Origin: an uncultured Bacilli bacterium
GTDB lineage: Bacteria > Bacillota_I > Bacilli_A > RF39 > UBA660
Direction: 5' to 3'
Assembly (NCBI GenBank): GCA_947629135.1
Contig: CANRCN010000001.1
Location: 411 to 64,410, forward strand
DNA: 64,000 bases
A program made the position numbers and the translations under genes. How positions within the stretch are numbered: position 1 is the first letter of the stretch; each line of letters starts with the position of its first letter. Below, piece after piece: positions 35,131-36,373 of the stretch. Under the pieces are notes generated by a model that did not search any database, had not been told where the DNA came from, and was given only the letters and a program-made list of their open reading frames with translations.

Positions 35131-36373
35131 ATGATGGACATTTGTAGCAAGAATGATTGTACTGGCTGTAAATTGTGTAGTAATGTATGTCCTAAAAAAT
35201 GTATTTCGTTTAAAAAAGATGAATTGGGAGTAGAATATCCTGTTATTGATAAAGAAAAGTGTATATCTTGTCATCTTTGTGAGAAAAATTGTCCTTCAAA
35301 ACATGAATTTGAATATAAATTTCCAAGAACTGCTTATGCAGCTTGGAGCAGTGATGATGAGATAAGAAATAGTAGTACAAGTGGTGGTATTGCTCAAGAA
35401 TTATATAACTATGCTTTAGTAAATAATTATTCAACTTATGGAGTAACTTTAGAAAAAAATAAAAACAGCATAAATGATACATATATATATATATATATAT
35501 ATATATATATATATGCAAGTTGCTAATGTAAAAGAAATTAAAAAAGTAATTGGTTCTAAATATTGTCATGCTGATTTATCTAGAATTTTTGAGAATTTAG
35601 AAAACGATATTTTGAATGATAAAAAAGTTTTATTTATTGGTTTGCCATGTCAGGTTGCAGCAGTAAAAAATAAATTTGCTAGAGCTAAAAAATTAGACAA
35701 TTTAATTTTAATTGATCTTGTCTGTCATGGGGTAGCACCACCTGAGTATTTACAACAGCATATTTATAATATTGCTAATAAATATAATAAAAAAGTTTCG
35801 AATATCACTTTTAGAGATAAAAATTCTAGTTATTATTTATCTTTATATGATAACAATTCTAAAAAATTTTATTCTAAACAACCTATGCAAGATGATATCT
35901 ATTATCGTGGTTTTATGAATAATTTAATTTTGAGAGAAAATTGTTATCATTGTCATTATGCTAGAAATGAAAGAATTTCAGATATTACTATAGGGGATTT
36001 TGATGGATTAAGAGATTCAAGAATTACTGAAGACAATCGTTCTCAAGTTTCTTTAATCTTAGTTAATACATTAAAAGGTGAGAATTTAATAAAAGATTTA
36101 ATATCTAATAAAAAGATAGTAGTCTATAAACAAGAAAAAGTAGAGGAAGCGATTAGATATAATAAGGCATTAAATTCTCCAACTATCAAGCATAAAAATA
36201 GAGAGCTTTTTGAACAAAAGTATATTTTATCAAAAAACTTTGAAAAATCTGCTAATATAGCATTAAAGGAAGAGATAACAAAGTATAAAATATTAGTTTT
36301 CCCAAGATTAGTGTTTAAAATATTTCCTAAAAGTTTAAAGATAAAAATTAAAAAAATTCTAAATCGTACTTAA
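35131..36373 (+). pseudogene. FrhB/FdhB-like FeS flavoprotein (2x[4Fe-4S] ferredoxin domain + F420-hydrogenase beta-like domains), frame-disrupted by an (AT)17 tract, candidate phase-variable gene
   Basis: Two C-x2-C-x2-C-x3-C-P motifs in ORF 35131-35526; FrhB_FdhB-like continuation in ORF 35474-36373 in the +1 frame; the frames switch exactly inside the dinucleotide repeat. Confidence 0.6.
35481..35514. repeat. (AT)17 dinucleotide microsatellite inside a coding region
   Basis: 34 bp of perfect AT repeats flanked by c and g. Confidence 0.95.

Follow-up and report, generated by a model that had tools for sequence, protein, structure and literature searches.

The window analysed here is a 64,000-nucleotide (nt) stretch of contig CANRCN010000001.1 (positions 411 to 64,410 of the forward strand), which belongs to the metagenome-assembled genome (MAG) GCA_947629135.1 of an uncultured Bacilli bacterium (RF39; UBA660) and has a guanine plus cytosine (GC) content of 23.7%. 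On the evidence of Pfam matches, positions 11622 to 44094 hold a Gram-positive-type Wzx/Wzy capsule locus, and near its end lies a gene (35131 to 36373, forward strand) for an FrhB/FdhB-like iron-sulfur (FeS) flavoprotein, identified from the Pfam domains of a frame-restored fusion, from homologues of 400-410 amino acids (aa), and from an AlphaFold2 (AF2) model. The gene is frameshifted in the assembly, and the break falls at a perfect (AT)17 simple sequence repeat (SSR) at 35481 to 35514 (forward strand), which we propose as a candidate phase-variation switch on the basis of sequence reading, Tandem Repeats Finder (TRF), an in silico series of tract lengths, and a Markov model of the window. 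The parts of this gene and the individual capsule-locus genes for which coordinates are given below are likewise on the forward strand.

The gene encodes an N-terminal 2x[4Fe-4S] ferredoxin domain followed by FrhB_FdhB_N and FrhB_FdhB_C. Its sole ribosome-binding site, a Shine-Dalgarno sequence GGAGG at 35116 to 35120, stands 10 nt 5' of the ATG at 35131, from which the first open reading frame (ORF1, 35131 to 35526) runs through the tract to a TAA at 35524-35526, 10 nt past it. The resulting truncated OFF product of 131 aa is identical to the public protein P0127; it carries two CxxCxxCxxxCP motifs (C10/13/16/20 and C44/47/50/54), matches Fer4 families, and includes positions 1-45 of the 78 in the FrhB_FdhB_N profile. 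The second open reading frame (ORF2, 35513 to 36373, 286 aa) lies in the +1 frame relative to ORF1 and holds the remainder of FrhB_FdhB_N together with the whole of FrhB_FdhB_C. Its frame is open from 35474, and its ATG at 35513, composed of the last AT of the tract and the G that follows, serves as the start of P0002, a public protein of 286 aa. GGAGG-like sites precede ORF1 and the neighbouring genes, whereas ORF2 has no Shine-Dalgarno sequence, the AT tract itself lying upstream of it. A promoter and terminator scan of 34800-36600 gave matches at or below shuffled expectation, with no internal ORF2 promoter and no terminator. Because it is without a ribosome-binding site and promoter-like signal does not rise above chance, ORF2 is unlikely to be an independent gene.

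With the tract set to (AT)18, the fused protein scores 35.4 bits against FrhB_FdhB_N (PF04422; cut-off 22), with profile positions 1-75 of 78 covered, and 80.4 bits against FrhB_FdhB_C (PF04432; cut-off 23.3). The FrhB_FdhB_N match runs across the tract, which therefore interrupts a domain rather than separating two. An earlier note on this DNA, made from the sequence alone, had taken the two open reading frames for consecutive domains of one protein joined by an Ile-Tyr linker; they are indeed halves of one gene, but the split lies inside FrhB_FdhB_N, and Pfam, alignment, and AF2 place the repeat-coded residues in a beta-hairpin extension within that domain. When 18 full-length homologues are aligned, most have gaps in the tract columns, which are bordered by a conserved YGV-x-F strand on one side and a Y-I-K strand on the other. 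The AF2 model of the (AT)18 protein, with a mean predicted local distance difference test (pLDDT) score of 86.8, folds this region as a hairpin with strands at residues 101-110 and 123-130 and an intervening loop of pLDDT <50, the tract-coded residues 117-129 forming the hairpin tip and second strand. Since the tract sits in gap columns and at a hairpin tip of low model confidence, changes in its length should be tolerated. Foldseek searches with the model returned 8rja_E (E 4e-15) and Frh beta (E 6e-11), and the fold and sequence matches are FrhB-like subunits (8rja_E, 8riu_B, Frh beta, Fsr, and HCAR). Besides the eight ferredoxin cysteines, C174, C199, C272, and C275 are invariant in the 18 homologues, and these four could bind an FrhB-type [4Fe-4S] cluster.

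The tract reads C-(AT)17-G without interruption over 34 bp, at exactly the coordinates given in the earlier note, and TRF calls the same array. It is the sole dinucleotide run of more than 6 units in the 64-kb window, in which a first-order Markov model of the window's composition predicts 6e-11 runs of at least 17 units by chance; repeats of ~10 bp or longer are generally counter-selected in prokaryotic coding regions (PMC3315296). When tract lengths of n=10-23 were substituted in silico, a single open reading frame appeared only at n=12, 15, 18, and 21, encoding 410, 412, 414, and 416 aa, respectively, and every other length in that range terminated at about residue 127-136. The claims that the frame change arises solely within the repeat and that (AT)18 or (AT)15 restores a protein of ~410 aa were borne out by this series, the restored proteins having 414 and 412 aa. 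In the ON frame the tract, located at codon 117, is translated as (Tyr-Ile)n. The DNA of the tract is self-complementary and the (AU)17 RNA is predicted to form a hairpin of -16.7 kcal/mol; there was no sign of function for either property, and Rfam and transfer RNA scans of the window gave no match and hence no RNA element at the tract and no taxonomic marker.

The closest homologues of the gene were found in MAGs and assemblies from the rabbit gut ('Lapin'), which have ~23% GC and submitter labels reading uncultured Bacilli or Clostridia. Comparison of repeat number among orthologues had been put forward in the earlier note as a check, and it revealed (AT)5, (AT)8, (AT)9, G10, or no long repeat at the same codon position. 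Loci L001-L006/L016 carry (AT)8, out of frame and identical in six assemblies; L007-L009/L015 carry G10, also out of frame, where G9 would give 402 aa; L010-L014 carry G10 in frame within the intact 403-aa protein P0001, which reads EGGGS at the site; and L096, with G6 only and no long repeat, encodes the intact 405-aa P0128. Two further alleles are out of frame, with (AT)9 in L094 and (AT)5 in L095. Across alleles the AT number is accordingly 5, 8, 9, or 17, and G10 occurs in both ON and OFF form; the ON/OFF periodicity of the window allele also holds in silico in L016, L015, and L014. Relatives at <=50% identity have no repeat at the tract site, and when an alignment of the close alleles was used to scan metagenome contigs of the Joint Genome Institute (JGI), only relatives at <=39% identity appeared, none of them with the tract. 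Look-ups with P0002, P0127, the nitroreductase, and the UDP-glucose dehydrogenase found no other assembly of the same strain on record.

The alleles in L094 and L095, which are short contigs from other rabbit samples of the same study, show 100% identity with the window everywhere outside positions 35448-35534 (mismatch-free flanks of 477 nt in L094 and of 453 and 349 nt in L095) and thereby delimit a hypervariable cassette of ~90 nt around the tract. The counterpart in L094 (438-549) contains ACAA-(AT)9 with nine flanking substitutions, and that in L095 (411-482) has (AT)5 and, after it, 30 nt of different sequence. Coverage of these two contigs is 1.5-1.9x, and one of them stops a few bases past the tract. 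The source of the cassette variation is unexplained, the candidates being recombination, repeat-associated mutagenesis, or low-coverage chimeras; a diversity-generating retroelement was also considered, but the substitutions are not confined to adenines. The hairpin tip is a hypervariable cassette of ~90 nt that has repeatedly hosted simple repeats of two kinds.

Apart from the repeat, the full-length out-of-frame alleles (window, L015, and L016) have no lesion, neither a stop nor a frameshift. Ratios of nonsynonymous to synonymous substitution (dN/dS, Nei-Gojobori) over all allele pairs were 0.12-0.31 in the N-terminal part and 0.16-0.36 in the C-terminal part (0.12-0.23 and 0.16-0.32 against the window allele), at a synonymous divergence (dS) of 0.34-0.94 over all pairs and ~0.5-0.9 between the window and the others. 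Because dN/dS is low in both halves and the stop codons expected in old AT-rich pseudogenes are missing, the substitution pattern indicates that the gene is under purifying selection while carrying the repeat.

The capsule locus includes Wzz, a CpsD-like kinase, a CpsB phosphatase, an initiating transferase, several glycosyltransferases, a pyruvyl transferase, a flippase, ATP-grasp enzymes, and a UDP-glucose dehydrogenase; after these come the FrhB-like gene and nitroreductase-family, SGNH-like, MBOAT, Acyl_transf_3, thiolase, and SDR genes and a second SGNH-like paralogue. From this context we assign the FrhB-like protein a probable action on a surface structure. The nitroreductase-family gene (36470 to 37474) lies directly 3' of the FrhB-like gene, and the pairing is kept in L001/L016, L007/L015, and L096.

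Simple repeats recur among the genes that follow. An SGNH/GDSL-like gene 5' of the MBOAT gene (gene A, 37522 to 38600) has G10 at 37552-37561, ten codons past its ATG, and is OFF; it would be restored at G8 or G11 to 358-359 aa, with the one additional G of G11 giving 359. Its paralogue (gene B, 43052 to 44094), likewise OFF, has G11 at 43092-43102, ~13 codons in, and would be restored at G9 or G12 to 346-347 aa, with the one additional G of G12 giving 347. The last ~210 coding nt of genes A and B are 90% identical, within a 284-nt repeat that extends past both stops. The Acyl_transf_3 gene (40083 to 41099) carries G8 at 40114-40121, at ~codon 11, in frame and ON, and an (AT)6 run at 41131-41142 occupies codons 2-5 of the thiolase gene, also in frame, if the start is the ATG at 41127; the G8 and (AT)6 runs may be additional contingency tracts of shorter length. 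Counting runs of (AT)6 or longer and of G8 or longer, the window has five, and all of them fall between 35481 and 43102, the 7.6-kb modification end of the capsule locus, and the Markov model predicts 0.0015 poly-G runs of at least 10 per window by chance.

The 5' ends at 37517-37560, 40078-40121, and 43057-43100 share a similar module of ~44 nt, at 73-75% identity in otherwise unrelated genes, that encodes leaders of the type M-(N/K)-K-K-L-T...-GGG; it may be a portable start-plus-poly-G cassette or a chance similarity of AT-rich sequence. Sister capsule loci also hold runs of G7-G10 (L007: 7892-7901 and 10502-10511; L010: 9295-9304; L096: 13167-13174 and 15938-15944), sited in SGNH-like, hexapeptide acetyltransferase, ATP-grasp (TupA-like), and Acyl_transf_3 genes, and some of the G10 tracts in these capsule genes are in frame. 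This lineage employs simple repeats in its capsule-modification genes, much like Campylobacter jejuni. In Collinsella-type loci, G9 or G10 occurs soon after the FrhB-like gene (5349-5357 in L022, L023, and L027; 5349-5358 in L065; 5339-5348 in L029), and in L022, the locus for which open reading frames were listed, the tract is at ~codon 30 of a hexapeptide-type acyltransferase gene. A length of 9 in one species and 10 in another would shift the frame, and this may be a phase-variable capsule gene in a genome of 55% GC. At the window's right end, beyond the capsule locus, a gene for an AIPR/MzaE-like protein of abortive-infection type precedes one for a large serine recombinase (CcrB/XisF-like) over 59102-62756, which suggests a mobile or defence island.

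An intact polysaccharide pyruvyl transferase gene (24364 to 25449; PF04230) lies 10 kb from the FrhB-like gene in the window; in most other genomes the two are adjacent. We compared the window's pyruvyl transferase by tblastn with 113 loci encoding FrhB-like homologues (L014-L093 and L097-L129), drawn from Bacteroidota, Firmicutes, Collinsella, Treponema, and one Methanomassiliicoccales archaeon. A pyruvyl transferase homologue was present within the 3-4 kb flank in 103 of the 113 loci, on the same strand in all 103 (median E-value 1e-26), and directly adjacent, with a gap of <400 nt, in 88. The two genes form a module conserved across phyla, and from the 103 same-strand neighbours we infer that the FrhB-like protein very likely serves as redox partner for a polysaccharide modification derived from pyruvate. 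In some homologues of ~707 aa (P0024, P0042, P0048, P0063, and P0115) the ferredoxin-FrhB-like module is fused to a polysaccharide deacetylase domain (PF01522), an arrangement that likewise points to a role in polysaccharide modification. Dependence on F420 is improbable in this host. Mention of FrhB-like proteins in polysaccharide loci was limited, in the literature found, to a gene count in Klebsiella cps clusters, and the searchable literature yielded no paper describing the chemistry of the module.

Taken together, we consider it probable that (AT)17 is a contingency locus in a capsule gene, working by slipped-strand mispairing and OFF in the assembly. During replication, mispairing would add or remove AT units, each shifting the frame by 2 nt, so that lengths divisible by three would be ON and the states would follow one another in a cycle of period three. 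Cells in the ON state would make the 410-416 aa FrhB-like FeS flavoprotein with its hairpin extended by (Tyr-Ile)n; OFF cells would make a fragment of the 131-aa class and leave the downstream two-thirds without a ribosome-binding site. The window allele would be turned ON by the gain of one unit or the loss of two. (That every OFF allele stands one step from ON was set aside as evidence, as it is always true in a period-three cycle.) The enzyme would probably partner the pyruvyl transferase of the locus in forming a capsule substituent, and switching would alter capsule chemistry in a fraction of the cells, alongside the adjoining poly-G-controlled acyl-modification genes. Support for the switch comes from the tract and its frame arithmetic, from the insertion-tolerant loop, from the repeats of the relatives, and from purifying selection on both halves; the model further supposes a useful rate of length change, active ON proteins, and an effect of the enzyme on the capsule. 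The proposal of a repeat-length switch in the earlier note is thus well supported by comparative data, in which related loci have different simple repeats at this codon position, whereas its description of the mechanism as different from that of the poly-G tracts did not hold up: both would act by slipped-strand mispairing in a coding repeat and differ only in unit size.

A broader reading, which we offer tentatively and regard as possible rather than probable, is that the hairpin tip is a long-lived contingency site, tolerant of insertions, in a low-GC lineage of the rabbit gut, where one type of repeat (poly-G or (AT)n, depending on the allele) has replaced another, and that it belongs to a Campylobacter-like multi-switch capsule phasome of a gut commensal, gating the widespread FrhB-like/pyruvyl-transferase module. 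That phasome would include the ~90-nt cassette, which differs even between otherwise identical strains, and at least three neighbouring poly-G tracts.

Several observations weigh against a switch at this site. In L094 and L095 the departures from the window are substitutions near the tract and not simple slippage, and in public assemblies no polymorphism in length was seen within an allele, (AT)8 being identical in six assemblies, the OFF form of G10 in the three contigs read, and its ON form in four. Exact look-ups among ~15 billion proteins, covering 20 hypothetical slippage variants, returned no ON variants of the window allele (n=6-24), none of ten other OFF lengths of that allele (n=8-23), and no ON variants of the (AT)8 allele. 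All four (AT)n alleles are OFF, and an intact gene is found only with G10 or without a repeat. Chance could account for this, as two-thirds of lengths are OFF, but so could loss of function. Finally, the source is a short-read MAG, in which the consensus length of a 34-bp AT run may be off by one unit.

Loss of function would be the outcome if an AT-rich hairpin encoding Tyr and Ile (TAT ATA ...) had expanded through slippage as a non-adaptive microsatellite in a dispensable accessory gene, leaving a young pseudogene. The uniformly out-of-frame (AT)n alleles, the lack of an ON (AT)n allele in public collections, and the fixation of (AT)8 across six assemblies would all be expected from such an accident, for which the Y-I-x-x-Y-I-K of homologues at this site offers a natural AT-repeat seed; at the composition of the window, 2.6 runs of (AT)5 and 0.33 of (AT)6 are expected per window by chance under the Markov model. 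The tract is, however, perfect across 34 bp, and no out-of-frame allele has acquired a second lesion despite a dS of ~0.5-0.9, with dN/dS well below 1 in both halves; sister alleles independently hold poly-G at the same site, one of them ON, and neighbouring capsule-modification genes have poly-G near their 5' ends. We judge a microsatellite accident unlikely. A different objection concerns the state of the gene alone and is compatible with the switch model: stutter during the polymerase chain reaction (PCR) or sequencing, or a mixed population, could have produced a one-unit miscall, with the dominant state really ON. The short-read origin of the bin invites this concern, as do the other two contigs of the species, with their low coverage and, in one case, an end just past the tract. 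Against it, 34 bp is well within one read, and independent assemblies gave (AT)8 for the sister allele each time, from which it follows that assembly of this site is reproducible at least for short AT tracts; a wrong consensus length seems to us quite improbable.

It is very improbable that the OFF state is leaky or that the protein works in two pieces, with some product, full-length or functional, arising in spite of the frameshift. The ribosome might slip 2 nt on (UA)n with UAU/AUA codon pairing kept, transcription might slip, or ribosomes might terminate at 35524-35526 and start again from the ATG lying 11 nt upstream, with the fragments reassembling across the hairpin tip. Frameshifted Mycoplasma bovis mod (AG)n constructs did retain low, frame-dependent expression in Escherichia coli (bioRxiv 10.64898/2026.04.01.715767), the stop of ORF1 overlaps the ATG region of ORF2, the split falls at the tip of a surface hairpin in the AF2 model, and the (AU)17 RNA is predicted to form the hairpin described above; against this, no Shine-Dalgarno sequence precedes ORF2 and each fragment has half a domain. 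Programmed ribosomal frameshifting was rejected as the principal explanation, the orthologues being single-frame (P0001, P0128, and 16 others) and repeat type and length varying between alleles.

If the slipped-strand switch is real, repeat-driven phase variation of capsules would extend beyond intensively studied pathogens (among them Campylobacter, Haemophilus, Neisseria, Helicobacter, and Mycoplasma) to uncultured low-GC commensals of the gut, with several independent switches within one capsule locus, and would bear on the variation of commensal surfaces against phage and host immunity. The annotation of MAGs would need corresponding care, as switch genes would be called as two fragments or as pseudogenes, and a natural pair of ON and OFF variants would be a handy tool for the chemistry of the FrhB-like/pyruvyl transferase module.

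SSR contingency genes in capsule loci are of a known kind; the points of interest here are the host, from a lineage of uncultured gut commensals, the replacement of one repeat type by another at a single conserved site, and the FrhB-like/pyruvyl transferase module that the tract would control. In C. jejuni, poly-G tracts make genes for capsule and lipooligosaccharide (LOS) modification phase-variable, and several switches per locus generate combinatorial surface diversity (PMC8437040). The window resembles that system in having intragenic simple repeats in capsule-decorating enzymes, its G10, G11, and G8 tracts following the pattern closely, and is unlike it in two respects: the organism is an uncultured, low-GC, Gram-positive-type commensal of the rabbit gut, and the FrhB-like gene has at codon 117, within a domain, a dinucleotide repeat, (AT)17, instead of a homopolymer near the 5' end. 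Coding dinucleotide repeats in which a change of unit shifts the frame are described for Helicobacter pylori oipA, where (CT)n changes truncate the protein (PMC10564699), and for the Type III mod genes of Mycoplasma mycoides and M. bovis, where (AG)n acts as a frame switch (PMC3498834 and bioRxiv 10.64898/2026.04.01.715767). The window shares with both a coding dinucleotide repeat whose gain or loss of units would cause frameshift and truncation. Their repeats, however, consist of CT or AG units placed in the signal-peptide or 5' region of genes for an adhesin or a methyltransferase, whereas that of the window is self-complementary AT, 34 bp long, and encodes (Tyr-Ile)n in the hairpin of an FeS flavoenzyme. 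In Haemophilus influenzae, (TA)n between the -35 and -10 elements of hifA/hifB tunes transcription through spacing; the TA/AT unit and the proposed slippage mechanism are alike, but the window repeat is translated and would act by frameshift. As for the protein, it shares with the FrhB/FdhB family (Frh beta, the N-terminal half of Fsr, and HCAR) both Pfam domains, the four invariant cysteines, and the predicted fold, and with Fsr and 8rja_E the N-terminal 2x[4Fe-4S] ferredoxin arrangement; it differs from that family in its setting, a bacterial capsule locus, and in its association across phyla with a pyruvyl transferase partner.

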